Shown here: positions 39,846-58,503 of the stretch, piece by piece
How the letters are laid out: each line of letters opens with the position of its first letter
How positions within the stretch are numbered: the first letter of the stretch is position 1
Virus record (IMG/VR): IMGVR_UViG_3300037201_000018
Location: 1 to 64,000 of that record
Direction: 5' to 3' (one strand)
DNA: 64,000 nt
Origin: a virus
Made by a program: the position numbers and the translations under genes
Notes under the pieces: generated by a model
The model's input: the letters and a program-made list of their open reading frames with translations, nothing else
What the model was told of the DNA's origin: nothing
Databases searched by the model: none

Positions 39846-42281
39846 GTGACCGAACCTCTTCATTTCTTGACTGAGCAGGACCGGCAGAAGCTGGTCGACA
39901 CGATCGACCAAGCGAAGAAGCTCCGTGTCAGCAAGCCAGTCATAAGTAAAGATCCAAAGCTCGCCGTCGCTCAGGACGTCTACGTCGCCCGAGTCCCCTG
40001 CGGTCTCCAGATCCCTGCGAGCACGGCGACTCAGCCGGGATACCTCGACTGCTGCATCTTCAAGATCACGTGGCAGACCGACATCAACAATCCCACGATG
40101 GTCTACCAGCCACTCCTGAACCCCGATGGTTCAGCGGTGCGGGAGCGGGTCTACAACATCTACGACGTCCCAGTATTGGACTGTCAGTACATCCAGATCT
40201 ACAAGACAAAGGACGGACACTTCGTCAACGAGAACCCGGATTGGATGGACTGTCCTAACAATCCCGCGAGTACGTCATCAACCAGCTCAACTTCGAGTTC
40301 CACGACGACGGTCGCCCCGCAGAACACGTCAACGACGACTCCCAACCCGAACTATGCCTACTGCGCAGGAGTCTGCCAGTGGGTCTGGAGTGCCACAAAC
40401 AAAACCTGGAGCGTCACGAGCAGCACTTGCTACATAGCAACGACGACCAGCTCGACGAGTTCTAGCAGCACCAGCAGCACGAGTACTAGCTCGACTAGCA
40501 GTACATCTAGTACGAGTACGACTAGCAGTACATCTAGTACGAGTACGACGAGTACCTCGACGACGACTCCTTGTCCCTGCCCGACGACGTCAAGTTCCAG
40601 TTCGAGTTCTACATCGTCGACTAGCTCTAGCTCGACGTCATCGACATCTTCAACTAGTACGACGTCATCCACGACAACGAGCAGCACGACGACTCCTGCC
40701 CCCTGTCAGTGTCTCTATCCAACGACCTGTGGGACGAACGACGGGGACTGCACGACGACGTACTGCTCGACGGGGATCAATCAGCCCCCGAGCTGCGGTC
40801 AGTCGACGACCAGCTCATCCTCAACGACCTGCTCGCCCTGTCAGTCTTGTGCAGCTACGTCGACAACGCCATCGCCTGGAGGTGGAGGTAGCGGAAATAA
40901 CTGCGGTAACTGCATAGCGACTTGTTTGGGAGTCGTGGCTGGGACGTGTAACGACAAGGCAGGAACTTGGACGTTAACGACTGGATGCATCTCACCAACC
41001 GGGTGCGGTTGCCCACTCTTCGGTCAGAACTTCGTTCCTGGGATCATCGGAACACCGTGTAGCACTAACGGTGCCACGATCTCGATGGTATGCATCACTG
41101 GGGAGACTATCCCACCTGGATCTAGCAGCAGCGGACAGTGTTGCTACAGTTGGACCGGATCGGCGTGGCAGTACAAATCTACCGCATCGACTCCCTGCGC
41201 CGTTTCGGGAATTGTGACTTCTGGCCTTACCTGTCAACCTCCATCAGCCCCCGGCGGGACTGTCTGCGGTATATCTTGTACGCCATGCGTGGCGGCGGGA
41301 GGAGGTGGTAGCCCAGGCAATCCAGCGACTACCCAAGCTCCATGCTGCACCGGATACTCTGGCCCCGTCTGCGGGGGCGTCCCTCAGACCTCAACGACAA
41401 CTACGACTGCCCAGCCTTGCGGGACCGGCTGCTCCTACAGTTACACTACCAGTACCTGGTCTCTCGTCTCGAACAACTGCGGTCCCTGTTCTTGCGTCGC
41501 CCCAACTGGAACTCCGAGTCCTGCCTGTGCCGCTGGCTCAAATATCCAGGTAATGCCCTGTGGTCCCCAGACGTCCTCGACAACTACCACAACGACTACG
41601 ACGACTACCACAACGACTACGACGACTACGACGACTACTACGACCACGACGACTACTACGACCACGACGACTTGTGCTCCAAATGGGTGCGTCCCAATAG
41701 CAACAGGATGCCCAAGTAGTGGAGGAGTTTGTGCAATTTATTGTGCAAATGGATGTGGAGGAGGCGGTCCCGGTTGGTATGGCCACGCTGAGGGTGCCGG
41801 ATGTGCATCCAGTTGCGTTGTATATTCTCCCTCTCCTGGAAATTGTGTTTATCAGGCATGCGGCCCCGGCTGCCCCAATAATTTACCATCAAGCCCAACT
41901 GATGGGCAGACCGTTTGTGGAGGATGCATTCCAGGCGGCATTTCGTCACAGAATTCTTGCTTTGGTGCCATGAGTGGTTGCACTACCTGCAACACCACCA
42001 CGACAACTACAACGACCACCACTACCACGACGACGACGACCACAGCTGCTCCTTGTCAGTGGCAATGCTGTGAACCGGGCAAAGACAACCCTTACGGCTG
42101 GCAGCTGCTGAGCACCACCTGCGGAGGAGGATTCGCGTGTCTGCCACCTGCGACGGTCTGTAATGCTGGCACGGCGAACTGCCTAATCGCCACAAACAGT
42201 TGCGTCCCCAGCAGCACGCCAGGGTCGACAAACACGCCCTCCGGGTACACCAGCTGTAGTGGTGGTGGAGTCTGTAGTTAA
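39846..42281 (+). CDS. mucin-like Cys-rich, poly-Thr/Ser tail-associated protein
   Basis: Long S/T tracts, runs of 31 and 17 Thr, and many Cys-rich modules with WxW...W...C motifs; last gene of the tail module. Confidence 0.75.
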   Translation: MTEPLHFLTEQDRQKLVDTIDQAKKLRVSKPVISKDPKLAVAQDVYVARVPCGLQIPASTATQPGYLDCCIFKITWQTDINNPTMVYQPLLNPDGSAVRERVYNIYDVPVLDCQYIQIYKTKDGHFVNENPDWMDCPNNPASTSSTSSTSSSTTTVAPQNTSTTTPNPNYAYCAGVCQWVWSATNKTWSVTSSTCYIATTTSSTSSSSTSSTSTSSTSSTSSTSTTSSTSSTSTTSTSTTTPCPCPTTSSSSSSSTSSTSSSSTSSTSSTSTTSSTTTSSTTTPAPCQCLYPTTCGTNDGDCTTTYCSTGINQPPSCGQSTTSSSSTTCSPCQSCAATSTTPSPGGGGSGNNCGNCIATCLGVVAGTCNDKAGTWTLTTGCISPTGCGCPLFGQNFVPGIIGTPCSTNGATISMVCITGETIPPGSSSSGQCCYSWTGSAWQYKSTASTPCAVSGIVTSGLTCQPPSAPGGTVCGISCTPCVAAGGGGSPGNPATTQAPCCTGYSGPVCGGVPQTSTTTTTAQPCGTGCSYSYTTSTWSLVSNNCGPCSCVAPTGTPSPACAAGSNIQVMPCGPQTSSTTTTTTTTTTTTTTTTTTTTTTTTTTTTTTTCAPNGCVPIATGCPSSGGVCAIYCANGCGGGGPGWYGHAEGAGCASSCVVYSPSPGNCVYQACGPGCPNNLPSSPTDGQTVCGGCIPGGISSQNSCFGAMSGCTTCNTTTTTTTTTTTTTTTTTAAPCQWQCCEPGKDNPYGWQLLSTTCGGGFACLPPATVCNAGTANCLIATNSCVPSSTPGSTNTPSGYTSCSGGGVCS
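41580..41672 (+). repeat. (ACN)31 poly-threonine codon tract
   Basis: 31 consecutive Thr codons using ACG/ACT/ACC/ACA; a second 17-codon tract at 41994-42044. Confidence 0.95.
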
Positions 42282-42293
42282 GGAATCCGTAGG

Positions 42294-42746
42294 ATGAGAA
42301 CTCTGCCGACGATCACCGCTGCCCAGCTGCTGGGGTTCGGTCCCTGTGCCGAGTATCTGAAGGGCGGCAAGCGAGAGAGCGTCATCAGCCAGTCGCCTGA
42401 GTGGGACGCTAGGGGACTCCTGTCGTTGGACATCCCAGACGACCACAAGTTGTGGGCGGTCCTGAGACTCGAACTGCTACCGCAGGACTTGCTGGATAAC
42501 TGCGTCAAAGCGATCCACGCGGACTATCCCGAGCTGAGAGGCGAGATCGTTCCCCCAGCCGGCAGTACCTACGAGCAAGACCGAGATGTCATCCTCTCCT
42601 CACTGAAGAAGAAAAAGTATCTCTCCGCCTGCGTCCACTGCACCCAACTGGCGAGACTGATCCCCCGCAACCGTAACGTGCGGCAGGAACTGGCGAGGCA
42701 GGTCGAAGTGATCAAGCAGCAGGTCCAGAACTGGATAGATGATTAA
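42294..42746 (+). CDS. hypothetical protein
   Basis: 150-aa ORF linking the mucin-like gene and the glycosyltransferase cluster. Confidence 0.55.
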   Translation: MRTLPTITAAQLLGFGPCAEYLKGGKRESVISQSPEWDARGLLSLDIPDDHKLWAVLRLELLPQDLLDNCVKAIHADYPELRGEIVPPAGSTYEQDRDVILSSLKKKKYLSACVHCTQLARLIPRNRNVRQELARQVEVIKQQVQNWIDD

Positions 42747-44655
42747 CCCCTCTCAAACTGGAGTGACAGAAGTGCCCAAACTGACGATCGGGATGGCCCA
42801 CCACGCGGACGTCGCGAGATTAGAGTCTACAGTTCAGTCTTTGAGACTGCATCACGCGGTCGACTGGAACTTTGAGATCGTGATCGTCGACAACTCGGCG
42901 AACCTCCCCTGCACTCAGGACCTCGTCAACTTTATCAACTCGGCGACGTCTCACGATCGCTGCGTGATCAAGTACGTCCCCATGACCGATCCCGTCGGTA
43001 CGAGTCCCACGAGAGACCTGATCTTCCAGATCGCGACGGGCGACTTCGTGCTCGTGATGGATTGCCACGTCATGCTTGACAAGGATGCCATCTCTCGTCT
43101 CTTGAAGTTCTACTCTGAGCATCCCAAGACTGACGACCTCTACTCTGGTCCCTTACTGACTAACGACTTGAGAACCTCGTGGACTCACTTCAACGACCAG
43201 TGGCGGGCGGAGATGTGGGGAACGTGGAGTACGGCCTGGATCTGTCCCTGCGGAGGAACGCGGTTCTCCACGCTCGACATGGGGACCGGTAAGATGATCC
43301 CGATCGCCCTGACGATGGGAGCGGTCAAGATCGACGGCTGCCACTACTGCGGCAAGCAGTTACCCAAGGACGGTCCCTGGAACGGTCACGAGGACTACTT
43401 AGAACGACAGGGTTGGATTCCTCTCGGGAGAGATCCCGACGAGAAGCCCTTCGAGATACCGGGCCAAGGTTTGGGACTCTTCACTTGCCGTCGGGAGTCG
43501 TGGCTCGGCTTCAACAAGGATTCGAGGTTCTTCGGAGGCGAGGAACTCTACATCCACCAGAAGTACAGGAAGGCTGGGAGAACCTGCTGGTGTCTGCCCT
43601 TCCTCCGCTGGTGGCACGACTTCTACAAGGACCCCAACAAGCCAACTTACACCAATACGACATGGAACAAGTGTCGGAACTACGTATTAGAGTCTCAAGA
43701 GTTGGGCGAGGAGTGGATGCCGCTGCTCGACGTCAAGAACCACTTCATCGGGCAGAACAACTTCACGGAGGCCCACTGGAACAAGCTGATAGCCGATCCC
43801 GTCAAGAGGGTCAACGAGAGCGACTGCCCTGGCTGTCAGGCGGCTCAGGCTGCCATGATGATCCAAGACGATCCTCAGATCAAGACCCTCGACGACGCAT
43901 TCGACGTCGTCTCAAAGATTCCCCGTGACATGGAGCAGCACATGCCCAAGCTGCGGGAGCTGGCAGCCGACGTCTCGCACGTGACGGAGATCAGTCACCG
44001 GCGGGAGGGGACGATCGCGTTCCTGGCTGCTCGACCCAAGTTCATCAAGTCCTACAACCTAGAGCCAGCTTCCCCTCAACTCAGCAAACTCGCGAAGGAG
44101 GCGGGAGTCTCGCTAGACATCCAAGCCCCCGCCGACGGTTACGTTAAAATAGAACCGACGGATCTGCTCTTCATCGACGACGTCGAGACGTATGAGAGAA
44201 CCAAGCAGCACCTAGAGAGACTGTCGGGCTCAGTGAGTCGCTACATCGTCTTCCACGACACGATCTTCGCCCCTCCGATGATGCAGGCGATCAGGGAGTT
44301 TCTGTTCGTCAATCGTCAGTGGTCGGTCATCTACCACACGGTCGAGGAGCACGGGCTGACTGTCCTCGGTTGCAGAGACGAGGACAAGCCAAAGCTGCCG
44401 CCCTTCACCGACGAGCTGAAGAATGTCACCCGGAGCATCTGGAAGGCGGCGACGAACTACGTTAAGGGAGGGCAGACGAACGTCGAGCCTGAGGTCTATG
44501 AGAAGCGACTCTCGATCTGTGCGACCTGCACCCAGCGAGTCAACGACCGCTGCGCTGCCTGCGGGTGCCGCATCGAACTCAAGGCGAGCTTGGCAACGGA
44601 CACCTGCCCCCTCCTCTACTGGCCCCTACTGAATGCAGAAGGGAAGGTAGAATGA
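42739..44655 (+). CDS. GT-A glycosyltransferase (ppGalNAc-T-like motifs) fused to a methyltransferase-like domain and a C-terminal Cys-rich domain; possible start GTG 42772
   Basis: EIVIVDNS, ATGDFVLVMDCH (DxH), GLGLF, FGGEELYI, LRWWH; DLLFIDD...IVFHDT; RLSICATC...RCAACGC...CPL. Confidence 0.75.
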   Translation: MINPSQTGVTEVPKLTIGMAHHADVARLESTVQSLRLHHAVDWNFEIVIVDNSANLPCTQDLVNFINSATSHDRCVIKYVPMTDPVGTSPTRDLIFQIATGDFVLVMDCHVMLDKDAISRLLKFYSEHPKTDDLYSGPLLTNDLRTSWTHFNDQWRAEMWGTWSTAWICPCGGTRFSTLDMGTGKMIPIALTMGAVKIDGCHYCGKQLPKDGPWNGHEDYLERQGWIPLGRDPDEKPFEIPGQGLGLFTCRRESWLGFNKDSRFFGGEELYIHQKYRKAGRTCWCLPFLRWWHDFYKDPNKPTYTNTTWNKCRNYVLESQELGEEWMPLLDVKNHFIGQNNFTEAHWNKLIADPVKRVNESDCPGCQAAQAAMMIQDDPQIKTLDDAFDVVSKIPRDMEQHMPKLRELAADVSHVTEISHRREGTIAFLAARPKFIKSYNLEPASPQLSKLAKEAGVSLDIQAPADGYVKIEPTDLLFIDDVETYERTKQHLERLSGSVSRYIVFHDTIFAPPMMQAIREFLFVNRQWSVIYHTVEEHGLTVLGCRDEDKPKLPPFTDELKNVTRSIWKAATNYVKGGQTNVEPEVYEKRLSICATCTQRVNDRCAACGCRIELKASLATDTCPLLYWPLLNAEGKVE

Positions 44656-44728: not shown

Positions 44729-45022
44729 ATGTTAAACTCTAAAGAACACGTATGTCATCACTGTGATAATCCGCCATGTTGTAATCCAAAGCACCTGTTT
44801 CTAGGTAACGATAAATCTAATCGCCGAGACGCTACGTCTAAATTTAGAACGGAGCACGGAGAGGATCATCACTTCGCAAAGATAACTGAGAGGGATGTAC
44901 TGGAGATTAGAAAATTGGGGGCTGCTGGATCACACCGCCACCGGCAATTAGCTGAGATGTTTGGTATTAGTATTTCACAAATTGTCTCGATAATCCACCG
45001 AAGGTTTTGGAGGCACATATGA
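44729..45022 (+). CDS. HNH homing endonuclease (short, possibly N-truncated)
   Basis: VCHHCDNPPCCNPKHLFLG..KSN plus C-terminal HTH; AT-richer than flanks. Confidence 0.75.
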   Translation: MLNSKEHVCHHCDNPPCCNPKHLFLGNDKSNRRDATSKFRTEHGEDHHFAKITERDVLEIRKLGAAGSHRHRQLAEMFGISISQIVSIIHRRFWRHI

Positions 45023-45813
45023 GAAGTAACCCATTTATTGCGTGCTTGTGTGCAACTTACAAGAGACCGACTTGCCTGGCGAACGCGGTCGCCTGTTTCT
45101 TGGCTCAGGAGTACGAAAATAAGGTATTGGTGATCGTAGATGACGCCGCGCAATACAACCCACGTGAGTACGATTGGAAGCAACCCAAGAACATCCTGAT
45201 GATCTCTTGGCAGCAGAGAGGACCGAGCCTCAGCGAGAAACGAAATGAAGTAGCTAGGATCGCTAAGGACGGATATGAACCAGAGATCTTTGCTGTTTGG
45301 GACGACGACGACGTTTACCTCCCGAATCATCTCAGCAACATAGCCGCGGGTTACGAGCGAGGGGGAGAGTTCTTCCTTCACAAGAAGGTACTGACGACCT
45401 ACGACTGTGGAGAGACCGGAAAGACGGTTTTAGAACAGGCGGTGTATGAAGTCGCCGGTCCCTGGGAAACCCGGTTCCATTCCTCCTGGGCATTCACGCG
45501 GGAGCTGTTCGAGCGAGTCGGGGGTTATCCCCCTCCTATGCCTAACGGGCAATACGATGATTTTGAGACTCAGCTCGGAATAAACCTAAAGCGAGTCGGT
45601 AAAGTAGAATATATCGACGGCGATGGACCGAGTTACGTCTGCCGGGTGTTCAACCAAGCCGAGTACCACTTGACGCAGACGGACGGGAAGAGCTACCAAG
45701 AGAACTGGGAAAGGATCGGCAAGTTGCCATCTCCGTTCGTCGGCGAGTTAGTTCCAAAGATGGACGACTGGACCAAGCGACTGTACGTGAACTTAACTGG
45801 AGTAAAAGCGTGA
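45019..45813 (+). CDS. GT2-like glycosyltransferase
   Basis: LCATYKRP, FLAQEY, LVIVDD, SLSEKRN, VWDDDDVYLPNHL. Confidence 0.85.
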   Translation: MRSNPFIACLCATYKRPTCLANAVACFLAQEYENKVLVIVDDAAQYNPREYDWKQPKNILMISWQQRGPSLSEKRNEVARIAKDGYEPEIFAVWDDDDVYLPNHLSNIAAGYERGGEFFLHKKVLTTYDCGETGKTVLEQAVYEVAGPWETRFHSSWAFTRELFERVGGYPPPMPNGQYDDFETQLGINLKRVGKVEYIDGDGPSYVCRVFNQAEYHLTQTDGKSYQENWERIGKLPSPFVGELVPKMDDWTKRLYVNLTGVKA

Positions 45814-46631
45814 GCGACGAGCTTCCTTTCGTATCGTGCTTGTGCCCTACCTATCGTCACCCAAAGCTACTGGCCAACGCCGTCGCCTGCTACCTCTCGC
45901 AGGACTACCCGTTGGAGAGGCGAGAGCTGATCATCCTCGACGACTACGGCCAATACGAGAACAAGAGCTACGACGGTTACCAAGTCGTCTCCGTCTCTCG
46001 TCGATACGTTTCGTTCTGGGAGAAGCGGTGTGCGACAGCGGCTCTCGGGAGGAACTTGGGAGAGAACAAATCCCCAGACGTCTACTGTGCTTGGGACGAT
46101 GACGACGTCTACATGCCGTGGCACATCACAGCCCACATCGAGGCGCTGAAAGTCAGACGGCGGGGTAGGGACGCTGTTGCCTACTCACATCCCATGAAGA
46201 TATTCAGCACATATGGGCGAGTCTTACATGAGGAAGACGGTCGAGGTCGGTTTGAGGGTTCTTTCGCATTCACCCGAAGAGCCTACGAGAAGGCCGACGG
46301 CTGGCCAGTCACCAAGCGGGGAGGGGGTGACCAGATATTCATCGGTCGACTGGAGAAGGCCTGCGGAGGAAAGATCGACGACCCCTGCGAGGGATATGCC
46401 CCCAGCTACGTCTACCGTTGGGAGTCTACGAACAGTAATCATTCATCGGGGTACCATAAGTCGTTTGACGACGAGGAGTGGTATGATCGCTACGCGAGAG
46501 AGGCGAACTTCGACGACGAGGGGGCCAGCAGGATCGTCTTACCCCAGTTCGATGCGGAGACGAAGCAGATCTACAGTCTAGTCGATCAGGAGAAAGGAAT
46601 CGGCCTTGAGACACATCAGATACAGAGTTGA
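45810..46631 (+). CDS. GT2-like glycosyltransferase (paralogue of the preceding gene)
   Basis: VSCLCPTYRHP, YLSQDYP, ELIILDD, AWDDDDVYMPWHI. Confidence 0.85.
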   Translation: MSDELPFVSCLCPTYRHPKLLANAVACYLSQDYPLERRELIILDDYGQYENKSYDGYQVVSVSRRYVSFWEKRCATAALGRNLGENKSPDVYCAWDDDDVYMPWHITAHIEALKVRRRGRDAVAYSHPMKIFSTYGRVLHEEDGRGRFEGSFAFTRRAYEKADGWPVTKRGGGDQIFIGRLEKACGGKIDDPCEGYAPSYVYRWESTNSNHSSGYHKSFDDEEWYDRYAREANFDDEGASRIVLPQFDAETKQIYSLVDQEKGIGLETHQIQS

Positions 46632-47008
46632 CCCCGACGTCGAGATCAGTCGGGTCCTCAACCAACTCTTGGACTACTATGACGATAAAAAGTACGAGGA
46701 ACACCAGATCGAGAGGGCCAAGCGACCGCCGATCTACGAGAAGAGGCATGAGTACGGATGTTATCTTGACACTGGAAAGCCTCTCTCCGAGGAAGATCGC
46801 GAGAACTTGAGAAAAGAACTGGCAGGCGAGATCAGAGGAGACATCGACGAATGAGTGAACCTACCCACTACCACTGCCCCTACGGACACGAACATCCTCA
46901 ACCGTGCGAACTGGAAGACGGCAGGGTCATCTGTCGGAAGTGCTTGTACGACGACGGCGTAGAAGTTGAATGCATTCTATGTACGCCAGAGACCTGCGGA
47001 GAGCGAGC

Positions 47009-47785
47009 ATGAGATGGGCTTACGGAGTGATGACTTGTAAAGAGCGAGCGACGAATATCCTAAGTAAGACTCTCACGTCACTGGCAACGGGGGGATTTGA
47101 CAAGCCGCGAATTTTCCTCGACGATGGTTGGGAAGAGATCCCGATCGCAATCGAACTGGATTTCACAAATAGAAGTCCGCGAATCAATCCGTTCGGTAAC
47201 TGGCTGCTCGGGATTTGGGAACTCTACATCAGGAATCCCAACGCCGAGCGATACGCGATGTTCCAGGACGACATCGTATGCTACAAGAACCTTCGTCAGT
47301 ACCTCGAACAGTGTAACTTACTTCAGTACCAACCGATGACCGAATCAACCAGAACAGACACGATTCAAGAACCAAATAAACGATACTGGAACCTCTTCAC
47401 GTTCACGGCAACAGTCGACGTCGCTAAACACCAACCCTCGAACGAGGAACTAGCTCCGAAAGACAGAACAGGTTGGTACGAGTCCAACCAACTCGGTCGG
47501 GGGGCGGTCGCCCTCGTGTTCGATCGTCAGGGACTCCAGACGTTACTCAGCAGCCCCCTCCTCGTTCAGCACCCGATGGAAGTCTATCTGGGAACTAGGA
47601 GGATTGACGGGATTGTACGAGATTGCCTGAGTGCCGCTGGTTACGTGGAGTACGTTCATTGGCCTTCGCTCGTTCAACACGTGGGAGACCTCTCGACGAT
47701 CGGCAACCCAACACAGAAGCCCGCCATCTCCTTCCGCGGCGAAGAATATGATGCTCTCAACTTACTGAAGAGGGAAACCGTTTGA
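47009..47785 (+). CDS. GT-A glycosyltransferase
   Basis: YAMFQDDIV and WPSLVQHVGDLSTIG motifs as seen in phage glycosyltransferases. Confidence 0.65.
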   Translation: MRWAYGVMTCKERATNILSKTLTSLATGGFDKPRIFLDDGWEEIPIAIELDFTNRSPRINPFGNWLLGIWELYIRNPNAERYAMFQDDIVCYKNLRQYLEQCNLLQYQPMTESTRTDTIQEPNKRYWNLFTFTATVDVAKHQPSNEELAPKDRTGWYESNQLGRGAVALVFDRQGLQTLLSSPLLVQHPMEVYLGTRRIDGIVRDCLSAAGYVEYVHWPSLVQHVGDLSTIGNPTQKPAISFRGEEYDALNLLKRETV

Positions 47786-51058: not shown

Positions 51059-51059
51059 T

Positions 51060-51824
51060 ATGGACTCGGACTTCCCCAGTGCGATGCTCCCCGAGATCGA
51101 GGAGTTCCTCTCGAAAGACAGCGAGAGAGAATCTGGACTCGATCTCTACCCAGGCGTCTTCGACACACAGCACTTCTTCCCGCTTCAGAGGAAGGAGGAG
51201 CTGAAGAAGATGATCCAGACGGCTCGGAAGGTCGAGCCGAAGGTCATCATGGAGATCGGAGCAGATAAGGGGGGAGGACTGTATCACTGGTGTAAGTGCT
51301 TCCCCAGCGTCGAGAGAATCATTGGATGTGAGATACGAGGGACACCGTACTCCAGCCTCTTCGAGCGGTCCTTTCCGAATGTCAACTTCCTCTGGCTGCC
51401 GGTGAGCAGCTACGACAACAAGACGCTGAACGCTGTTCACAGGTGGCTCGGCGAGGAGAGACCCGACAGGCTGAAGATCGACGTCCTGTTCTGTGATGGC
51501 GAGAAATCGTACTTCAAGAAGGACATCGACGCCTACCTACCCTTCATGTCCCCGAAGGGGGTTATGTTCCTGCACGACATCACGGACTGGGATGGTCCCC
51601 CGCAGGCGTTCGAGTACGCCCAGAGTCTGGGTTTCAGGACCGAGACGATCATCGACAAGTCAGACACGATGCAGTCGCTCGGGAGGGCGATCCAGGGTCA
51701 GGCAGCGACGACTCCCTACGAGAGCTGGCTACGGCACTGGGCCGGGACCTCGTGCGGGGTCGGGGTCGTCTGGATGAGAGAATCTCAATTTACTGTCAAC
51801 GAAAGGAAGTTTAGAGATGAGTAG
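51060..51824 (+). CDS. class I SAM-dependent methyltransferase (Methyltransf_24-like)
   Basis: IMEIGADKGG, IDVLFCDG, GVMFLHDI. Confidence 0.75.
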   Translation: MDSDFPSAMLPEIEEFLSKDSERESGLDLYPGVFDTQHFFPLQRKEELKKMIQTARKVEPKVIMEIGADKGGGLYHWCKCFPSVERIIGCEIRGTPYSSLFERSFPNVNFLWLPVSSYDNKTLNAVHRWLGEERPDRLKIDVLFCDGEKSYFKKDIDAYLPFMSPKGVMFLHDITDWDGPPQAFEYAQSLGFRTETIIDKSDTMQSLGRAIQGQAATTPYESWLRHWAGTSCGVGVVWMRESQFTVNERKFRDE

Positions 51825-51961
51825 CGGCAAACCAGTTCTACAGCCTCAGCCGACTTGCAAGCATGAGTGGGAGATCTCCCGCGTGAGGGTCGGCATCAAC
51901 AAGTATGAGACCCGACATACCTGCAAGAAATGTGGGGAAACTAACCCACCAGGAAAGTAGA

Positions 51962-52852
51962 ATGGCTAAAGAGTGCAAACTGATAGGACAAGTTGGAGGA
52001 GTTTATCAGATTAGAAATACCTCAAACCAAAAAGCCTATGTTGGATCTACGAAGTGCTTTACTGGTAGATGGAAGACGCATAAGATCGCCCTTAGAAACG
52101 GCATTCACCCTAACAGATATCTGCAAAACGCTTGGAACAAGCACGGAGAAAAAGCATTCAAATTTGAGATCCTTATTAAATGCCGCTCTAGCTTGTGCTT
52201 GAAAAATGAGCAGAAGTGCATAGACGAAAGGACACTTAAAAATCTGTACAATCTTGCTCCAAAAGCTAACGGCGTTTTTGGAATCAAATGGTCAGAAAAA
52301 TCTAAAGAGGCTTTTCGGGCACGTTGGAATGAAATTTACTTAACTCCTGAATATATTCAGCACATGAAAGCTATCAAATTCGGAACAAAACGGTCAAAAC
52401 AAGCCATAGAAAAACACAAACTGTGGATGAGTAAAAACCGAGCCAAACTCGGAGCAGCTATTAAGCGGGGTCTTGCCAATCCCGAGGCCAGAAGAAAAAT
52501 GCGTGAGGCAGCTGCCAGACGTTGGGCATCGCGTAAGGCTGAGATTGCTAAAGTCAACGCAAATAATCGCAAAAATATAAACCCAGCGGTGTCAGAAGGT
52601 GCCAAGAGGGGCTGGATTACTAGAAAAGCTAATTACGGGACAGATGGGGGAGTCTCTGGGAAAATAGCAAATAAAGCTTTAATAACCAGAAGACAGAGAT
52701 ATGGCCCCAGTGGAAGGTCTCCAAGAGCAGCGGCCGAACTAGAGAAGCATCGAAAGCAGGCAAAATTGAGGAAAGATAAATTCAGGAAGGAACTGGCAGA
52801 AATCTATGAAAATATTCTCACGAAAAGACGAAAAACCAACACCAGTATGTGA
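51962..52852 (+). CDS. GIY-YIG homing endonuclease (Seg/I-TevI-like)
   Basis: GVYQIRNTSNQKAYVGST, RWKTH, LQNAWNKHG, EQKCID, YNL; basic C-terminal repeats; AT-rich. Confidence 0.85.
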   Translation: MAKECKLIGQVGGVYQIRNTSNQKAYVGSTKCFTGRWKTHKIALRNGIHPNRYLQNAWNKHGEKAFKFEILIKCRSSLCLKNEQKCIDERTLKNLYNLAPKANGVFGIKWSEKSKEAFRARWNEIYLTPEYIQHMKAIKFGTKRSKQAIEKHKLWMSKNRAKLGAAIKRGLANPEARRKMREAAARRWASRKAEIAKVNANNRKNINPAVSEGAKRGWITRKANYGTDGGVSGKIANKALITRRQRYGPSGRSPRAAAELEKHRKQAKLRKDKFRKELAEIYENILTKRRKTNTSM

Positions 52853-53280: not shown

Positions 53281-53871
53281 GTGAATGACCTGACCAAGAA
53301 GCTCGTTGAGATGTTCCCCAACGGCGGGTACTTCGTCGAGGCAGGGGCACACGACGGGATAGGCGACTCCCAGACCTATGAGTTAGAGCAACTCGGCTGG
53401 AACGGCCTCTGCGTAGAGCCCTCGTCAGCGTTCCACGGACTAACCGAGAGCCGCAGGTGCAGGCTAGACAACCGTTGCCTGTGGGACCACAACGGATTAG
53501 CTCCATTCACAGAGATCTCCGGAAATGACATCGAGCTAAGTGGTATCTCTGGGTCATTCAACTACGACGAACACGGCCGAGATAACCTTTCTAGCTATGT
53601 CAGCTTAAAGCAGGCGGTCACTCTTACCGCGATGCTCAAGGATCACGACGCTCCCTCAGTCATCGAGTTCCTGGCATTGGACACTGAGGGATCAGAATTG
53701 GCGATCCTCTCGGTTCACGACTTCGAGCGGTATCGGTTCCTGTTCATGGAGATCGAGTACCACACGGACAAGAGACGCGAAGAACTGACTCAACTACTTG
53801 TACCGAAGGGATACCAACTCCACTCTGACGACGCGGTAAACTTGTTTCTGACCTACGGAAGGGAGATATAA
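53281..53871 (+). CDS. FkbM family methyltransferase
   Basis: YFVEAGAHDG, GWNGLCVEP, IEFLALDTEGSELAIL. Confidence 0.85.
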   Translation: MNDLTKKLVEMFPNGGYFVEAGAHDGIGDSQTYELEQLGWNGLCVEPSSAFHGLTESRRCRLDNRCLWDHNGLAPFTEISGNDIELSGISGSFNYDEHGRDNLSSYVSLKQAVTLTAMLKDHDAPSVIEFLALDTEGSELAILSVHDFERYRFLFMEIEYHTDKRREELTQLLVPKGYQLHSDDAVNLFLTYGREI

Positions 53872-53877
53872 TAGAAA

Positions 53878-53945
53878 TTGCGTGGCTAGGGTCGCTCCTG
53901 AAAAGCAGAAACCTCGCTGCCTGCCACGTAACTTTTTAATTGAGG
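53878..53945 (+). promoter_or_regulatory. structured leader (three-way junction) upstream of the HNH gene
   Basis: ttgcgtggc/gccacgtaa outer stem; internal agg...cct and gcag...ctgc hairpins; TATAAT at 53867. Confidence 0.45.
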
Positions 53946-54617
53946 GCTACTGGGGGAGTAGAAAACGTGACAGAGATTAAGGACATTAAAGGACAGCGGT
54001 TTGGCAAGTTGGTAGTCTTAAGCTATGTCGGACAGAACAAGTTCAGGAAGGCCGAATGGAGGTGCCAATGCGACTGCGGTAAGACTACAGTCACAACAGG
54101 AGGCGGATTAAGGTCAGGCAATACAACTAGCTGTGGCTGTTACCAGAGAGAAGCTAACAAAACCCACGGTGAGTCACGAGTCAACAGTAAGGAATACAAA
54201 GCTTGGGGCGAGATGTTGAGCCGATGCCGGAACTCAAACGGGAAGGCATACCACAACTACGGCGGTCGGGGAATCAAAGTCTGTACTCGTTGGTTGTTAT
54301 TTGTAAATTTCCTAGCTGACATGGGCCGTAAGCCAACTCCTCAACACAGCCTTGATCGTTATCCAAACAACAACGGCAACTATGAACCCGGAAATTGCCG
54401 ATGGGCGACCAAAAAGCAACAGGACACGAACCGCAGACAGACGCGACTGCACACATTCAATGGTGAGACGCTATGCGTTAAAGACTGGGCTAAGAAATAC
54501 GATCGAAGCTACGACGTGCTACTGAAAAGAATCCAGTCTGGATGGGACTTCGAGAAAGCCCTGATGACTCCCTACAAAAAATACAAACTAAAAAGAAAGG
54601 AGGTGCACAATGGCTAA
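53940..54617 (+). CDS. HNH-type homing endonuclease (GQRFGKL...CDCG family); start may be GTG 53967
   Basis: GQRFGKLVV, WRCQCDCG, SCGC, YGGRGIKVCTRW, SLDRYPNNNGNYEPGNCRWAT. Confidence 0.85.
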   Translation: MRATGGVENVTEIKDIKGQRFGKLVVLSYVGQNKFRKAEWRCQCDCGKTTVTTGGGLRSGNTTSCGCYQREANKTHGESRVNSKEYKAWGEMLSRCRNSNGKAYHNYGGRGIKVCTRWLLFVNFLADMGRKPTPQHSLDRYPNNNGNYEPGNCRWATKKQQDTNRRQTRLHTFNGETLCVKDWAKKYDRSYDVLLKRIQSGWDFEKALMTPYKKYKLKRKEVHNG

Positions 54618-55381
54618 TCCAATGGTGTTTAAGCATATCGAGCTGGAAATACTAACGGCTTGCGATTGTGCCTGCTTTTGGTTGTGATCGAATGAGCGAC
54701 GTCACCAACGCACCGAACATGACGATCGAACAGGTCAAGCTGTTCGTCGACGAGAGCCTTGAACTCGACTGGGAGTGGGAGCGTATTCGATTGCTCGGGG
54801 GAGAGCCTACTCTACATCCCAAGTTCCGTGAGATCTGCGAAGAGCTGATTCGTTACCGTACCAAGTTCCCTGGCGTCTTCCTTCAGGTCCTCAGCAACGG
54901 ACTCGGCAAGTTAGCCCAACACCAGGACTGGCTCGTCGAGAGGAACATCGACCCACACGTCGAGGCCAAGAACAAGACCGTCCAGCCTCACTGGTTCGTC
55001 AACACGAGGATCGTCCCTCTCGACAGAGACCCCGACTGCCCCGACCTACCGCCGTGCGGGATCTTCGGCGTTAGGGGCTGTGGGATCGGACTGACGAGGC
55101 ACGGATACTTCCTCGATGGTGCTGGGGCCTCGATCGCTCGTATCGCTGGGTTCAACATCGGAGTCCAGCACCTCAAGAACGTCACGATGGAGGCCATGCT
55201 CGAACAAGCCAAGCCAATCTGCAAGCGCTGCGGACACTGGAACGACCAAACGCCAGGAGTCCCATCAGTGACCAAAAAAGTTTCGGAGACCGGGATGACG
55301 ACTGGGGCCTTCTGGACAGAGACCCTCGCGAAGTACAACAAGGAGAAGCCAGTCCTGACCGTCTACGGGAGCGACAGATGA
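54610..55381 (+). pseudogene. radical SAM protein with a +1 frameshift inside the CxxxCxxC motif
   Basis: ATG 54610 frame gives MANPMVFKHIELEILTACDCACFWL*; removing one T of TTTT restores CDCACFGCDR in frame with LLGGEPTLHP and VLSNG. Confidence 0.7.
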
Positions 55382-55569: not shown

Positions 55570-55570
55570 C

Positions 55571-56149
55571 ATGACTAGAGATCGTTACTGCCTGCCTCAG
55601 AACTACATTACGAGGCCTGAGCCGATCTTCCACGATGATACGACGTTGAAGGACGAATACCAGAAGGAAGTGTACGCCGAGGCGAGAGACTACTACGACA
55701 GATACGAGTTCAACACAGTCCTCGACCTCGGCTGCGGCTCGGCGTTCAAGCTGCTCAAATACTTCCCCGAAGCCCTGACAATTGGAGTCGACCTGCCTTC
55801 TACCGTAGATTGGCTCCGCAGGAATCATACCGAGAGAGCCTGGAGGGATTGGGACGACGGACCCACGAACGCGGAGTTAGTGATCTGCGCCGACATGATT
55901 GAGCACGTGAAGGACCCCGACGAGGTCATCAACTTCATCGAACGCTGCAAGCCAACCCTCATCGTGATCTCAACGCCAGACCGCTCGTTACTGGAGAAGG
56001 GCAAGGAAGGTCCACCGAATAACGAAGCCCACGTCCGGGAGTGGACCTTCGACGAGTTTGGTGAGTACCTCCGTCAGCGGTGGGTGATCATCGATCAGAA
56101 AGTAGTGAACTACCAACAATCAACCCAAGTGGCGGTCTGCCGACTATGA
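55571..56149 (+). CDS. class I SAM-dependent methyltransferase
   Basis: VLDLGCGSAFKL, LVICADMIEHVKDP, ISTPDR, HVREW. Confidence 0.85.
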   Translation: MTRDRYCLPQNYITRPEPIFHDDTTLKDEYQKEVYAEARDYYDRYEFNTVLDLGCGSAFKLLKYFPEALTIGVDLPSTVDWLRRNHTERAWRDWDDGPTNAELVICADMIEHVKDPDEVINFIERCKPTLIVISTPDRSLLEKGKEGPPNNEAHVREWTFDEFGEYLRQRWVIIDQKVVNYQQSTQVAVCRL

Positions 56150-56721
56150 AACTCACGATCCTCATGCCGACGCTCGTCGAACGTCGTGACACGCGGAAGA
56201 AGTTGGTCAACGAACTCCTGAGACAGACGAGAGGCCACAGGAGAGACGTCGAGCTGTCAGTCTTCGAGGACGATGGGACGATGTTCTATGGGCGAAAGAT
56301 GCACGTGATGTACTCCCAAGCGAAGGGAGACTACGTCTGCTGCGTCGACGATGACGACTGGGTTGCAGGTAACTACGTCGAGTGGATACTGAACGCGATT
56401 GCAATTGGGCCAGACGTCGTCACGTTCGACCTCTATCGCGTCGATCTTGCCCAGACCTGGACGTTCGGAACCAAGTACCAGGACCGAGAGGTTGTTGGAT
56501 CTAAGATTGGGATGACGGCGAATCACCTCTGCGTCTGGCGGAGGGAACTGGCTCAGTCGGTTCCCTGGCCCGACGAGACACAAGGGGCCGACGTCGCGTG
56601 GTACACTGAGATGCAGCGAAAGTATCCAGACGCTCTTGAACAGCACATCGACGCGATCCTCTACCTCTACTTCTTCGACCGCTCGGTCAGCCGCTGCCAC
56701 GAAAGGTTAGATGATGAGTAA
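56146..56721 (+). CDS. GT2-like glycosyltransferase
   Basis: LTILMPTL, AKGDYVCCVDDDDWV, GADVAW. Confidence 0.8.
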   Translation: MKLTILMPTLVERRDTRKKLVNELLRQTRGHRRDVELSVFEDDGTMFYGRKMHVMYSQAKGDYVCCVDDDDWVAGNYVEWILNAIAIGPDVVTFDLYRVDLAQTWTFGTKYQDREVVGSKIGMTANHLCVWRRELAQSVPWPDETQGADVAWYTEMQRKYPDALEQHIDAILYLYFFDRSVSRCHERLDDE

Positions 56722-56895: not shown

Positions 56896-58503
56896 ATGAA
56901 GGCAATACTTGTTGCCGTTAATTTCCTTGATATCCTGTCAATCACGCTTCCTTACAATCGACATCACTTCGACGAGGTCTGGATCGTCACGAACCAACTG
57001 GAAGTCAGCAGTCCCAAGATGATGCAGTTAGCTGCGGACAACCGAGCGACGCTGTTCGGGACCGACGCCTTCTACGAGGATCATGCCGTTTTCAATAAAT
57101 TCAAGGCGCTGGAGCAGGGACTCGACGCGATGGGAAGAGACGGTTGGTTATGTGTAGCACCCTGGGTCCCCGTAGAAGCTCCATTCGTTAAAGGCGCATC
57201 GAGAAAATGGTACGTCGGAAATCTGATCACGATCAGGACCGTCAGTGGCCGGTCAGTGTCCGTGACACCTGATCACAACTTGTTTACCTCTCGCGGTTGG
57301 GTTCCAGCGAAATCGATTCGCAAAGGAGACAATCTCTTTCAGGTCAGCAGTCCCGATTGTCTTGGGGCACCAGACGTACACCAGCGTCCACCCGAGATTG
57401 GTCAAATAGTCGATGCGGCGTTTGAGAGATCCGCGATGAAGAAGGTGGGGTCCGTGAGGATTCGTATGGATCTCAAACCCCAATTTCTTGACGACGATCG
57501 CGACGTCGATGTTATACCGTCTGACAGCGAATTGTCTGTCGACCTTGAACCGCTTCGACAGTGTGTCAGCGACGTCGCCTTCGTAGCGTCCGATGCAGAC
57601 CTGGTTTGCGTGTCTAGTCTTAGCGATCTTCGACGAGACCTTCGCGGGACGCGCTACGCCGGTACGCACAGCCCTCATCGCAGCGACCCGCTTAGCGACG
57701 GCCGCCGGAGAATCGTGAGTCGCCCTAACTTTACCGGCTTGGCTATGACTCCGTTGTATTATTCCAGACAGTCTGAGTTGCCTACTGATAACCTTGTCAC
57801 TTGTATCAAAAACAGCGGCGATAGTTCTCAAGCTATCGCCGGCCTCATAACGCCTGACGACGTAGTCTCTATCGATGCCATCCCGTGGTCTGGTCATGTC
57901 TATGATCTCTCTACGGTTCAAGGTTGGTTCCTAGCAGATGGACTTATTATACACAATTGCATCATGGACGCCGACGTCCTCTGGCCTAAAGACATTGGCG
58001 GAGTGATGATCGAGAACAGTTCCAACAGGAACTTGATCCTATCAGATTGTGGTTGCTCATTTACGTTTGGCTATCTTTACACTCCCAAGCGGCGGATGTT
58101 CACCAATCTCACGAAGCCAATTCCGCCGGAGTCCGAGTGGAAGGACTACCCCTACCATCACTACTTGGCTGAGTGGAGTGGCTACACCCAGATATTCCAC
58201 GGCAGCGACCCAGTCCTTCCGAATCCGCCTTGGCATGACACTTCGTGGTTACATGCTGGCGGCGGCGACAGCGGATTTCAGAGTCTGTGGCCACCAGACA
58301 AAAAGCTCCGTACACCCTTTGAATGCTTGCACTTGGGCGACTCGCTTAACTGGACAGGGAGAGTGACGAAATACGTCGACGGGTCTACTCCGCCGGGGGC
58401 CGAAGCAAACCGCCAGAAGCTGGTGAGGTTCCTGCACGAGCGAAGTCTGAAGGGCAGCAGGTCAGATCGCTACGACCACGAGAAGATACAAAGGACTGAG
58501 TGA
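56896..58503 (+). CDS. GT-A glycosyltransferase interrupted by an intein
   Basis: Exteins join as FNKFKALEQGL...DGWL|CIMDADVLWP (DxD motif), then GYTQIFH, AGGGDSGF and CLHLG. Confidence 0.8.
   Translation: MKAILVAVNFLDILSITLPYNRHHFDEVWIVTNQLEVSSPKMMQLAADNRATLFGTDAFYEDHAVFNKFKALEQGLDAMGRDGWLCVAPWVPVEAPFVKGASRKWYVGNLITIRTVSGRSVSVTPDHNLFTSRGWVPAKSIRKGDNLFQVSSPDCLGAPDVHQRPPEIGQIVDAAFERSAMKKVGSVRIRMDLKPQFLDDDRDVDVIPSDSELSVDLEPLRQCVSDVAFVASDADLVCVSSLSDLRRDLRGTRYAGTHSPHRSDPLSDGRRRIVSRPNFTGLAMTPLYYSRQSELPTDNLVTCIKNSGDSSQAIAGLITPDDVVSIDAIPWSGHVYDLSTVQGWFLADGLIIHNCIMDADVLWPKDIGGVMIENSSNRNLILSDCGCSFTFGYLYTPKRRMFTNLTKPIPPESEWKDYPYHHYLAEWSGYTQIFHGSDPVLPNPPWHDTSWLHAGGGDSGFQSLWPPDKKLRTPFECLHLGDSLNWTGRVTKYVDGSTPPGAEANRQKLVRFLHERSLKGSRSDRYDHEKIQRTE
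57151..57957 (+). mobile_element. intein (269 aa)
   Basis: Starts with Cys (CVAPWVPV); block B VTPDH...GWVPAKSIRKGD; block F HVYDLSTV; ends IIHN followed by Cys+1. Confidence 0.9.
57253..57897 (-). CDS. antisense-encoded HTH plus PD-(D/E)xK (Vsr/DUF559-like) endonuclease nested in the intein
   Basis: RYEAGDSLRTIAAVFDTS (HTH); E..VADTL...QFAVRRYNIDVA...LGFEIH...H...RIDYLTNLGWTLVYVW; ATG at 57897 with AGAGAG upstream. Confidence 0.75.
   Translation of the reverse strand: MTRPRDGIDRDYVVRRYEAGDSLRTIAAVFDTSDKVISRQLRLSGIIQRSHSQAGKVRATHDSPAAVAKRVAAMRAVRTGVARPAKVSSKIAKTRHANQVCIGRYEGDVADTLSKRFKVDRQFAVRRYNIDVAIVVKKLGFEIHTNPHGPHLLHRGSLKRRIDYLTNLGWTLVYVWCPKTIGTADLKEIVSFANRFRWNPTARGKQVVIRCHGH

Follow-up and report, generated by a model that had tools for sequence, protein, structure and literature searches.

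The window, a 64,000-nucleotide stretch of viral DNA, carries on its plus strand a run of tail genes and, behind it, an island of candidate glycan-building genes. The tail-tip run is opened by the gene for the tail length tape measure protein (35836-38187), which matches 14 tape-measure families of PHROG (E=1.4e-18 for the best); neither its product nor the counterparts in related loci contain any Cys (0%). It is followed by a conserved tail gene of family A4 (38184-39359), whose homologues (32-44% identity) lie directly 3' of the tape measure gene in 26 loci and a relative of which is encoded on 119 viral contigs. The A4 protein is possibly minor-tail-protein-like, as the Atlas points to Phage_min_tail (score 0.85, a lead only). 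A small conserved gene between A4 and the fibre (39262-39837) has same-position homologues in 10 loci and no match in Pfam or PHROG.

A Ser/Thr-rich fibre gene ending the tail module

Preceded by the tape measure gene and these two genes conserved in relatives, the last gene of the structural module (39846-42281, GTG start, 811 aa) is read from composition, codons and position as encoding a mucin-like fibre protein, and synteny suggests that it belongs to the virion. The initial annotation had described it as Cys-rich modules separated by long Ser/Thr tracts, with runs of 31 and 17 Thr in mixed synonymous codons, and composition and codon counts reproduced this exactly. Thr accounts for 20.8% of residues, Ser for 15.1% (36% for both), Cys for 8.7% (71 Cys) and Pro for 8.5%, and the Ser/Thr tracts span 14, 43, 37, 9, 7, 34 and 17 residues. 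The T31 run (aa 579-609; ACG14/ACT10/ACC4/ACA3) and the T17 run (aa 717-733; ACC6/ACG6/ACA3/ACT2) are each written with all four Thr codons. As TRF detected only imperfect 9/18/21-nt periodicity (78-87% matches), duplication accounts for part of the growth of the tracts, which cannot be read as arrays produced purely by slippage.

The protein starts with a conserved N-terminal domain of ~130 aa, followed by a Thr linker and a CxGxCxWxW..W..C module, after which Ser/Thr tracts alternate with Cys-rich modules. The N-terminal domain, for which a structural search gave no clear match, is common to ~30 of the roughly 60 upstream ORFs in other loci, the remaining ones being different. In 22 fibre orthologues (A2) the positions of linkers and module are kept, a Thr linker recurring at two fixed positions around the conserved Cys module while linker length and sequence vary. 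Neither a signal peptide nor a TM segment was found in the fibre protein, the lack of a signal peptide being counted in favour of the proposed glycosylation in the cytoplasm. Between the fibre gene and the transferase gene lies a 150-aa ORF (42294-42746) without family match or homologue in 80 related loci; it is specific to the present phage, the two genes being directly adjacent in related loci.

The neighbouring three-domain transferase and its distribution

The gene at 42739-44655 encodes a three-domain enzyme, presumed from Pfam, motifs and predicted fold to be an initiating protein O-glycosyltransferase. Residues ~10-357 form a ppGalNAc-T-like GT-A catalytic domain, residues ~385-550 a rhamnosyl-O-methyltransferase/CmcI-like domain and residues ~580-628 a DUF6171 six-Cys cluster (Pfam 35.1 bits); at the sequence level the class of the enzyme is just GT2 (37.1 bits). 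The residues D108xH110, F265GGEE269 and W291xH293 are invariant across 20 homologues with 39-64% identity. In a Foldseek search of the PDB with the AF2 model (pLDDT 84.5), the top 47 matches were all ppGalNAc-Ts (32 of the 47 listed; best E=1.1e-11). VIA-align comparison with 29 ppGalNAc-T entries gave Z 19.8-23.6 and rmsd 2.9-3.8 Å over 252-270 aligned residues, followed by chondroitin polymerase (K4CP, Z 19.4) and other GT-A enzymes (Z at most 18.6); most ppGalNAc-T entries thus lead by only ~2-4 Z units, and the lowest one, 5nqa, by 0.4 (19.8 vs 19.4). The nearest predicted fold of the catalytic domain is that of the polypeptide GalNAc-transferases (GT27), with invariant metal and donor motifs, and in predicted shape the phage enzyme resembles the animal enzymes that start mucin chains. 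The fused methyltransferase-like domain named in the initial annotation was recovered through RMNT_CmcI matches in 7/20 homologues (CmcI or Methyltransf_24 in 6-7/20), and its activity is uncertain because the glycine-rich SAM loop is degenerate (TEFSxRRE).

A survey of related phages, suggested with the initial annotation, bore out the association of this enzyme with Ser/Thr-rich fibres. In 48/52 viral loci the full-length transferase is immediately preceded by a co-directional ORF that is 200 aa or longer, contains 5% Cys or more and has an S/T tract of 8 or more residues, as against 1/1743 other ORFs in the background; after redundancy removal the count is 34/38 clusters at 90% identity and 19/21 at 50%. 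Three of the four exceptions have an S/T- or Cys-rich upstream ORF missing one threshold (L017, an ORF-calling artefact; L024, with 4.2% Cys; L041, with 196 aa only), and in the fourth, L033, the upstream ORF is Cys-rich with S/T runs reaching 7 residues at most. As a negative control, among cellular proteins homologous to the catalytic domain only, 3/41 have an S/T-Cys neighbour.

An independent sample of 47 relatives was gathered through the A4 anchor gene, and 24 carry both an S/T tract and the transferase, 22 neither, one the transferase only (a borderline case with a longest S/T run of 7) and none the S/T tract only. Presence of the transferase coincides with S/T tracts on the fibre, and its absence with their absence, apart from this one borderline case. 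About four state changes are placed on the anchor-gene tree, in which tracts and transferase move together, so that the core of the island was not found to occur independently of S/T-rich genes; an independent-pairs test had too few well-supported contrasts for significance. Two counter-cases are on record: one Schlesneria MAG has three transferase copies, none with such a fibre neighbour, and the close relative L033 retains the transferase with S/T runs of at most 7.

Where the transferase is missing, relatives carry either ordinary fibres or fibres that are Cys-rich but free of S/T tracts, and the latter bear on whether the virion might be glycosylated not, or not only, at the tracts, which would then be plain flexible linkers. 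Other structural proteins with Thr runs could be the targets, as short runs occur in three further structural-module ORFs (23520-23981, 26429-26809, 28302-29552), or S-linked sugars could be placed on the Cys modules, for which the 71 Cys of the fibre would offer sites. Such a target is unlikely, since L200, L206, L209, L227 and L237 combine Cys-rich, tract-free fibres with absence of the transferase and the closest structural relatives of the enzyme are Ser/Thr O-transferases.

Downstream enzymes and mobile DNA

Seven glycosyltransferase-like genes had been counted in the island, a plausible number; four entries are counted as passing the Pfam GT2 cut-off, namely the lead enzyme, 45007, 56146/56080 and, via its homologues, the family of the lead enzyme. 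The gene at 45007-45813 (GT2, 32.4 bits), presumed to be chain-extending, is a paralogue of the next gene (45810-46631), a weak GT2-like candidate with sub-cut-off matches (NCBIfam TuaG-like, E=1.4e-5; Pfam GT2, E=0.019). In 24/46 viral loci with enough sequence, a homologue of 45007 follows the lead transferase at a distance of ~2 kb, and 45810 matches the same downstream GT2 of relatives. The third (56146-56721; 25.8 bits vs cut-off 23.3) has a DDDD metal motif, and its likely ATG overlaps the stop of the methyltransferase gene before it. A possible GT-B glycosyltransferase (48284-49342) is weakly indicated by Glyco_trans_1_2 (E=0.015, sub-cut-off) and found no match in a PDB sequence search; its homologue in phage L027, located within the corresponding cassette, is 50% identical. 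The last two are GT-A-like by motif only. One is the conserved family A5 protein (46970-47785; invariant FQDD), with 389 homologues without any Pfam family, several of them on phage-sized contigs shared with the closest transferase relatives; A5 is located after the GT2 in L033 and L027, and hhalign against A1 and a PDB profile search were both negative. The other is an intein-containing protein (56896-58503; Intein_splicing 41.4 bits; junctions GWL|intein|CIMDAD), whose exteins include a DAD motif and alone match nothing in Pfam.

All three stand-alone methyltransferases of the initial annotation pass their cut-offs, namely 51060-51824 (Methyltransf_24, 27.9 bits vs 26.3), 53281-53871 (FkbM family, Methyltransf_21, 48.5 bits; 54% identical in L027) and 55571-56149 (Methyltransf_23, 38.7 bits vs 27). 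The two radical-SAM genes fared less evenly. For 49571-50740 the CX3CX2C motif (CDKACFGC, aa 35-42) is present, with 29% identity to an L027 radical SAM protein over 86 aa and nothing better than E=0.004 in Pfam, so that it is radical-SAM-like by motif only. The enzyme at 54610-55381 has a sub-cut-off Radical_SAM match (E=7e-5) and is interrupted by a 1-nt frameshift inside the CX3CX2C coding region (TTTT, 54676-54679; two frames read); its L027 homologue is intact, and the two are 56% identical from 54614 onward. Likewise, the CX5R phosphatase stands as a motif (CQYGHSRS, aa 7-14) in a 108-aa low-molecular-weight phosphatase-like protein (47955-48281) without match in Pfam, NCBIfam or PDB.

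Glycosyltransferases, methyltransferases and radical SAM enzymes are also used by other phages in DNA hypermodification, so that the island could serve base modification of the phage DNA for restriction evasion, a possibility that the initial annotation had named as refuting its proposal. This is very improbable, as the structural operon that contains the island is remote from the replication module, DNA polymerase A is adjoined elsewhere by a Mom-family DNA-modification gene (genome 77687-78472), no nucleotide hydroxymethylase or kinase was found among the ORFs scanned, and the lead enzyme has protein O-transferases as fold neighbours and co-varies with a protein feature.

The island enzymes are all soluble, no TM helix having been found among the island proteins; no flippase or polymerase family occurs among the island's Pfam, PHROG and NCBIfam matches, and no epimerase, NTP-transferase or GT1 family was matched in the genome. 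This set of absences fits direct sequential transfer to protein. Glycosyltransferases for O-antigen modification are common in temperate phages, and full-length transferase copies inside large Planctomycetota chromosomal contigs indicate that some of these phages are temperate; soluble GT2 enzymes can, moreover, act on lipid-linked intermediates. Modification of host envelope glycans (lysogenic conversion, receptor masking or superinfection exclusion), with the S/T-rich fibre a mere neighbour, is nevertheless quite unlikely: the transferase gene belongs to the late tail operon, where it comes immediately after the fibre gene, rather than being near lysogeny genes, TM helices are missing and GtrA/GtrB-type families are, like flippase and polymerase, absent from the island's Pfam, PHROG and NCBIfam matches, and this explanation does not predict that the transferase tracks the S/T tracts as it does in the anchor sample.

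Selfish DNA, absent from the initial annotation, makes up ~3.5 kb of the island. It includes an HNH homing-endonuclease remnant (44729-45022; PHROG 59, E=1.1e-14), mobile and outside the pathway, and a mobile GIY-YIG homing endonuclease (51905-52852; Pfam 32.6 bits) in a GC dip (47%; 0.474 across 52-54 kb). An ORF without family match (53940-54617), which is endonuclease-like by motif only and probably mobile, is preceded by an int-alpA RNA motif (53879-53946; Rfam 52.5 bits vs gathering score 35.8), and the intein (57151-57957) completes the set. The homing endonucleases, the mosaic fibre genes sharing an N-terminal domain in only part of the upstream ORFs, and well-supported branches compatible with a single origin of the pair would suit a functionally unlinked mobile module at a recombination hot spot ending the tail operon. 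That account is highly unlikely, given that the pair is kept at transferase identities down to ~31-36% and across fibres with unrelated N-terminal domains, that the catalytic residues are invariant, and that the association follows S/T composition rather than one fibre lineage.

A candidate cassette for fibre O-glycosylation

Hundreds of uncultured siphovirus-like phages and prophages, most of them Planctomycetota-linked, share a conserved co-directional pair of fibre and three-domain transferase genes at the end of the tail module, and no publication on this cassette was found in the literature. Full-length genomic copies of the transferase are mostly in Planctomycetota, and the host of this uncultured phage is probably a planctomycete. 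The widely conserved set is limited to the fibre, the lead transferase, a second GT2 and one unknown gene. The remaining ~12 kb of the island is variable and shared in part with one other, distantly placed phage, L027, which has an expanded cassette 3' of its fibre gene; the A5 protein, the GT-B-like enzyme, a radical SAM enzyme and the FkbM methyltransferase are common to both (shared enzymes 38-59% identical).

Taken together, genomic and structural evidence makes it likely that the phage encodes a cytoplasmic protein O-glycosylation cassette whose substrate is its own tail-end fibre, the presumed O-glycan acceptor. The proposal that the island builds a methylated or otherwise modified glycan on the fibre is thus upheld for its core by comparative genomics and the fold of the lead enzyme. 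For the whole ~16 kb, a single glycan is only inferred, because of the variable content past the first 2-3 genes, the mobile elements and the weak family assignments; most of the distal 12 kb is not conserved together with the pair.

During late gene expression, the GT27-like domain would place the first sugar, taken from a host nucleotide sugar, on Thr or Ser residues of the linker tracts that separate the Cys-rich modules. A sugar may then be O-methylated by the fused CmcI-like domain, and the downstream GT2 would lengthen the chain. In the present phage, the enlarged, partly mobile set of extra GT2s, a GT-B-like enzyme, three methyltransferases and two radical SAM enzymes may elaborate the glycan further. 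Such modification would yield mucin-like stalks, stiff, hydrated and resistant to proteases, by which the Cys-rich modules would be spaced apart and presented for host contact.

Phage and mucin-like fibre

The window covers the initial 64 kb of an IMG/VR virus record of 94,383 bp with a rated completeness of 100%. Its genes include those for a portal, a MuF-type head-morphogenesis polyprotein, a head-tail connector and a tape measure, and the phage is therefore of the tailed, siphovirus-like kind. The island, the run of enzyme genes of about 16 kb that ends at 58503, gave 0 matches by megablast against 50,697 phage records, with no cultured phage close at the DNA level, and for the portal, identity is ~32% at most. 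A scan for promoters and terminators returned nothing above chance.

The fibre ORF (39846-42281, +) agrees with its description in the initial annotation; it has 811 aa, 20.8% Thr, 15.1% Ser and 71 Cys. Its Ser/Thr tracts measure 14, 43, 37, 9, 7, 34 and 17 residues, and the reported runs of 31 and 17 Thr were recovered, encoded by all four Thr codons; Tandem Repeats Finder (TRF) detected only imperfect 9/18/21-nt periodicity in the tracts. Among the ORFs of the 94-kb genome, long Ser/Thr tracts occur in the fibre alone. Neither a signal peptide nor a membrane segment was seen in the protein, and it matched no Pfam or PHROG family. Gene order is constant in the related loci, running from the tape measure through a ~300-aa gene and a ~170-aa gene to the fibre and the transferase, often followed by a ~260-aa GT2 gene and the operon end.

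The N-terminal domain of ~130 aa is common to ~30 fibres, and an alignment of 22 of them displays this domain, a Thr linker, a CxGxCxWxW…W…C module and a poly-Thr linker, with linker positions kept and linker lengths free. A conserved anchor end with a variable distal part, at such a gene position, is typical of tail fibres. On this pattern and the gene position, the fibre is presumably located in the virion; fold searches with the N-terminal domain gave no clear match. Its model is a small OB-like barrel with a best BFVD match at E=0.014 and PDB-wide Z values of at most 4.1, at which central-spike OB domains are tied with ribosomal proteins, and an Atlas match for the N-terminal part (score 0.77) was uninformative. 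The conserved tail gene upstream (38184-39359) has an Atlas match to "minor tail protein" at 0.85, which serves as a lead. A word-index search with fibre residues 1-140 returned nothing within the length window, though ORFs of related loci do share the domain, and single-sequence scans of viral contigs with the transferase or the fibre N-terminal domain matched nothing, alignments being needed for detection. The alignment of 22 fibres proved too divergent for a reciprocal scan; with a sub-family alignment, 14 loci were matched, 13 of them on contigs already known to carry the transferase, which added little.

A small module, C-x-[WY]-x-[WY]…W-x-[LV]…C, recurs within the fibre at aa 173-195, 368-381, 432-451, 529-545 and 737-759. 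It corresponds to the conserved first module of the 22 orthologous fibres, and no Pfam family matches it. Elsewhere in the structural module, Thr runs of 6-8 residues are found in ORFs 28302-29552, 23520-23981 and 26429-26809, which could be minor glycan acceptors, and the first of them carries a polysaccharide-deacetylase-like C-terminus (PHROG 24355, E=1.4e-12). ORF 25068-26468 (466 aa, thioredoxin-like at E=3e-4, below cut-off) was considered as a partner of the 71-Cys fibre and rejected, as a search of five related phage genomes did not find it.

Fold and domains of the downstream transferase

The lead enzyme (42739-44655, +; 638 aa), encoded downstream of the fibre, has 705 homologues in a word-indexed search and 1,829 clusters at 50% identity (E<=1e-30) in an exhaustive one, most homologues being 550-720 aa long and sharing its architecture. 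Its closest relatives, P0003 and P0004, share 58-59% identity, and their contigs were not retrieved by two metagenome scans. By tblastn against the 50,697 phage records, the sole match was to the DUF6171 segment, in Synechococcus phage S-SRM01. At the sequence level only generic GT2 similarity is apparent: for Pfam Glycos_transf_2 (PF00535, cut-off 23.3 bits) the enzyme scores 37.1, the second GT2 protein of the island (45007) 32.4 and the ORF at 56080 25.8.

Across 20 homologues with 39-64% identity, D108-C-H110, F265GGEE269, W291xH293 and a six-Cys C-terminal cluster are invariant. The Mn-binding DxH motif is shared with polypeptide GalNAc-transferases (ppGalNAc-Ts) of CAZy family GT27, among them human GalNAc-T2 (PDB 6nqt/2ffu/4d0t) and Toxoplasma GalNAc-T3, and the GGE(E/N) motif and the downstream His may be shared as well. 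F265-G-G-E-E269 may be the counterpart of the Gal/GalNAc-T motif (WGGENxE-like), and H293 is probably the third metal ligand, judged from spacing and not from coordinates.

An AlphaFold2 model built from the 20-homologue alignment reached a pLDDT of 84.5. Its 47 top-ranked Foldseek matches in the PDB (of which 32 were listed) were all ppGalNAc-Ts, and VIA-align placed 29 ppGalNAc-T entries first (Z 19.8-23.6, rmsd 2.9-3.8 Å, 252-270 aligned residues), followed by chondroitin polymerase (Z 19.4) and then by the remaining GT-A enzymes (Z 18.6 or lower). By this modest margin, ppGalNAc-Ts are the closest solved structures to the modelled catalytic domain, which aligns with them over ~260 residues. 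The acceptor logic would also be alike, with dense Thr/Ser tracts in a mucin-like protein as the presumed phage acceptor.

The differences are considerable. Sequence identity to ppGalNAc-Ts is 13-20%, and Pfam assigns a plain GT2 domain. No Ricin_B_lectin match was found, the C-terminal half being CmcI/Methyltransf_24-like followed by DUF6171, and no hydrophobic 19-mer reaches a Kyte-Doolittle value of 1.6, which leaves the enzyme without a type II membrane anchor. ppGalNAc-Ts reside in the Golgi, whereas the phage enzyme is cytoplasmic and of viral/bacterial provenance, with its catalytic domain fused to the CmcI-like, putative methyltransferase domain and the DUF6171 Cys cluster. As the lectin domain and the membrane anchor are missing, the enzyme is not filed as a GT27 member, but it probably works like a ppGalNAc-T. 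ppGalNAc-Ts link GalNAc from UDP-GalNAc in alpha configuration to polypeptide Ser/Thr, and the phage enzyme may likewise transfer a sugar, GalNAc or another, to Ser/Thr. The middle domain matched rhamnosyl-O-methyltransferase/CmcI (PF04989) in 7 of the 20 homologues (best E=1.2e-4) and Methyltransf_24 in 6 of the 20; the window protein itself matched neither profile, and SAM-loop motif I is degenerate (TE[FI]SxRRE).

Co-occurrence of fibre tracts and transferase

An enzyme-anchored profile scan identified 329 viral and 381 genomic contigs encoding a relative of the transferase. The full-length form is concentrated in Planctomycetota MAGs (21/27 genomic matches; Pirellulales, Planctomycetaceae, Schlesneria and others), Bremerella volcania has one homologue (P0023), and several full-length genomic copies are embedded in contigs of 0.17-1.07 Mb, a sign of integrated prophages.

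The proposal of the initial annotation that the phage builds a modified glycan on its own mucin-like fibre could be assessed through the co-occurrence of tracts and enzyme in relatives, which is borne out from two anchors. Of 52 viral loci that contain a full-length enzyme and sufficient upstream sequence, 48 have, ending at the enzyme start, an ORF with at least 200 aa, at least 5% Cys and an S/T tract of at least 8 residues (up to 40), compared with 1 of 1743 other ORFs in the enzyme-anchored loci. When the loci were clustered at 90% identity, the upstream ORF qualified in 34 of 38 clusters, and at 50% it did so in 19 of 21. Three of the four exceptions are artefacts or threshold cases, and the fourth (L033) has a Cys-rich upstream ORF with a longest S/T run of 7. 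Homologues consisting of the catalytic domain only, mostly from non-planctomycete bacteria, had such a neighbour in 3 of 41 cases.

The second test was anchored on the tail gene 38184-39359, relatives of which were gathered regardless of fibre or enzyme. Of the 47 loci that offer 7 kb or more of downstream sequence, 24 combined an S/T-tract ORF with the catalytic domain, 22 had neither, 1 the enzyme only and 0 the S/T tracts only; the lone enzyme-only case is the closest relative, in which the S/T runs reach 7 residues at most. Where relatives lack the enzyme, their fibres are either ordinary or rich in Cys but free of S/T runs, so that the presence of the enzyme follows the S/T tracts and not the cysteine content. 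The anchor-gene tree shows ~4 state changes in which both traits move together; well-supported branches require one of them only, and the independent-pairs test on this tree is underpowered.

Cys-rich (5-9% Cys) ORFs at the fibre position without S/T runs, such as L200:10643-12061 and L206:8951-10495, occur in related phages without the transferase, and the Cys-module architecture therefore exists apart from mucin-like linkers. In a Schlesneria MAG, three full-length three-domain copies (L089, L091, L094) each stand without an S/T/Cys-rich neighbour; they may be cellular enzymes with another substrate.

This co-variation of the enzyme with a feature of the fibre also bears on the possibility that the island enzymes act on host glycans, a reading further disfavoured by the late-operon position of the enzyme and by the fact that the island encodes no membrane protein. 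Modification of phage DNA is likewise disfavoured, given the location of the island, the fold neighbours of the lead enzyme and the presence of a Mom-family gene next to DNA polymerase A elsewhere in the genome. The Mom-family gene, whose product scores 68.8 bits against Pfam PF25680, lies at L178:14687-15472, corresponding to genome positions 77687-78472 beyond the window and directly after DNA polymerase A, so that phage DNA is probably modified through a pathway of its own, apart from the glycan island. Glycosylation of the fibre stays the preferred reading, and fibre and transferase together constitute a putative virus-encoded virion glycosylation system that is well supported genomically. 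No nucleotide-sugar synthesis family was found in the genome, so host sugars would be used.

The distal island and related glycosylation systems

Behind the fibre, all on the same strand, follow the three-domain GT2/DUF6171 enzyme, an HNH remnant, a GT2, a weak GT2-like gene, the conserved protein 46970-47785, a small CX5R-motif protein, a weak GT-B-like protein and a CX3CX2C protein. The island also holds, on that strand, three methyltransferases passing cut-offs, a GIY-YIG endonuclease and an endonuclease-like ORF behind an int-alpA RNA motif, as well as a putative second radical SAM gene, another GT2 and an intein-split protein. The gene inventory in the initial annotation was largely right, with several calls holding at motif level only and the selfish elements left unmentioned.

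Beyond the GT2 gene, only the 46970-47785 protein is widely conserved. Its family has 389 homologues, no Pfam model, an invariant FQDD and two His, and it shares phage-sized contigs with the fibre-transferase pair. The comparison with the transferase family by hhalign gave a probability of 0.2, PDB profile comparison was negative, and PDB sequence searches with the ORFs at 46970, 47955, 48284 and 49571 returned no match. In one other phage, L027, the fibre is likewise followed by a 46970-type protein, a GT-B-like protein, a radical SAM enzyme and an FkbM methyltransferase (38-59% identity), and the larger gene set thus acts as an optional add-on to the cassette. ORF 49571 has the CX3CX2C motif without a profile match, and ORF 54610-55381 scores 23.5 bits against the radical SAM profile, below the 29.5 cut-off, its motif being split by a frameshift.

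In this putative second radical SAM gene, which starts at ATG 54610, the frame is lost at TTTT 54676-54679, inside the CX3CX2C coding region. Skipping one T there restores C-D-C-A-C-F-G-C and, with it, collinearity to the intact L027 homologue; misassembly, a decayed gene or programmed frameshifting may each account for the lost frame. Selfish elements are unusually dense in the island, comprising the HNH remnant (44729-45022), the GIY-YIG gene in a GC dip (51905-52852), the endonuclease-like ORF 53940-54617 and an intein (57151-57957) that splits a GT-like protein just ahead of its DAD motif. Mid-island, at 53879-53946 (+), the Rfam int-alpA RNA motif (52.5 bits against a gathering score of 35.8) immediately precedes that endonuclease-like ORF.

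Phage-encoded glycosyltransferases acting on the phage's own virion proteins, as proposed here, have a precedent in mycobacteriophages Che8, Corndog and Myrna, where, as far as the account in PMC12363180 goes, coat proteins are decorated (Freeman et al. 2023, Cell Host Microbe 31:1216, cited therein). The target here would instead be a dedicated mucin-like tail-end fibre, the host phylum differs, and the glycan was demonstrated there and is predicted here. By tblastn over the 50,697 phage records, the lead enzyme matched no transferase of the Che8 gp110/Corndog gp38 type.

Chlorovirus PBCV-1 encodes A064R, a multidomain protein with two transferase domains and a sugar methyltransferase domain that takes part in capsid glycosylation. 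It resembles the proposed phage enzyme in being a viral cytoplasmic multidomain enzyme that joins a glycosyltransferase to a sugar O-methyltransferase, with a methylated virion glycan, whereas PBCV-1 is a eukaryotic virus with N-linked glycans on its major capsid protein and different transferase families. Gram-positive serine-rich repeat adhesins (Fap1, GspB, PsrP) are O-glycosylated by GtfA/GtfB and accessory transferases. They resemble the proposed phage system in combining a long Ser/Thr-rich protein, cytoplasmic sugar-by-sugar O-glycosylation and adjoining soluble transferase genes. In contrast, a GT-B (GT4) pair initiates glycosylation there, and the 94-kb phage genome has no PF00534 (Glycos_transf_1) match and no accessory Sec system, its presumed substrate being a virion protein with Cys-rich modules.

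The fibre-transferase cassette was not described in the literature searched on DUF6171, GT27 in phages and the fibres of planctomycete phages. A bolder reading, as a whole rather doubtful, is that mucin-type O-glycosylation is not confined to eukaryotes. Phages of Planctomycetota and other bacteria would then harbour a large GT27-like clade (at least 1,800 clusters at 50% identity) whose members, with a sugar methyltransferase and a metal-binding Cys cluster fused to them, might build methylated mucin-like stalks on fibres of new small Cys-rich W-x-W modules, the glycan being tailored in the present phage by radical SAM chemistry. To our knowledge, virus-encoded glycosylation of virion proteins is established in few systems only, namely some mycobacteriophages, chloroviruses and giant viruses, and phages of Planctomycetota are almost unstudied. 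If true, the widespread pairing of a mucin-like fibre with a GT27-like enzyme would represent a new abundant class of virion glycosylation and a first functional handle on Planctomycetota phages, and Cys modules on glycosylated Thr stalks would be a new fibre architecture. The soluble bacterial-type enzyme would be of possible use in making mucin-like glycoproteins in bacteria, and the cassette bears on the evolutionary origin of ppGalNAc-transferases.
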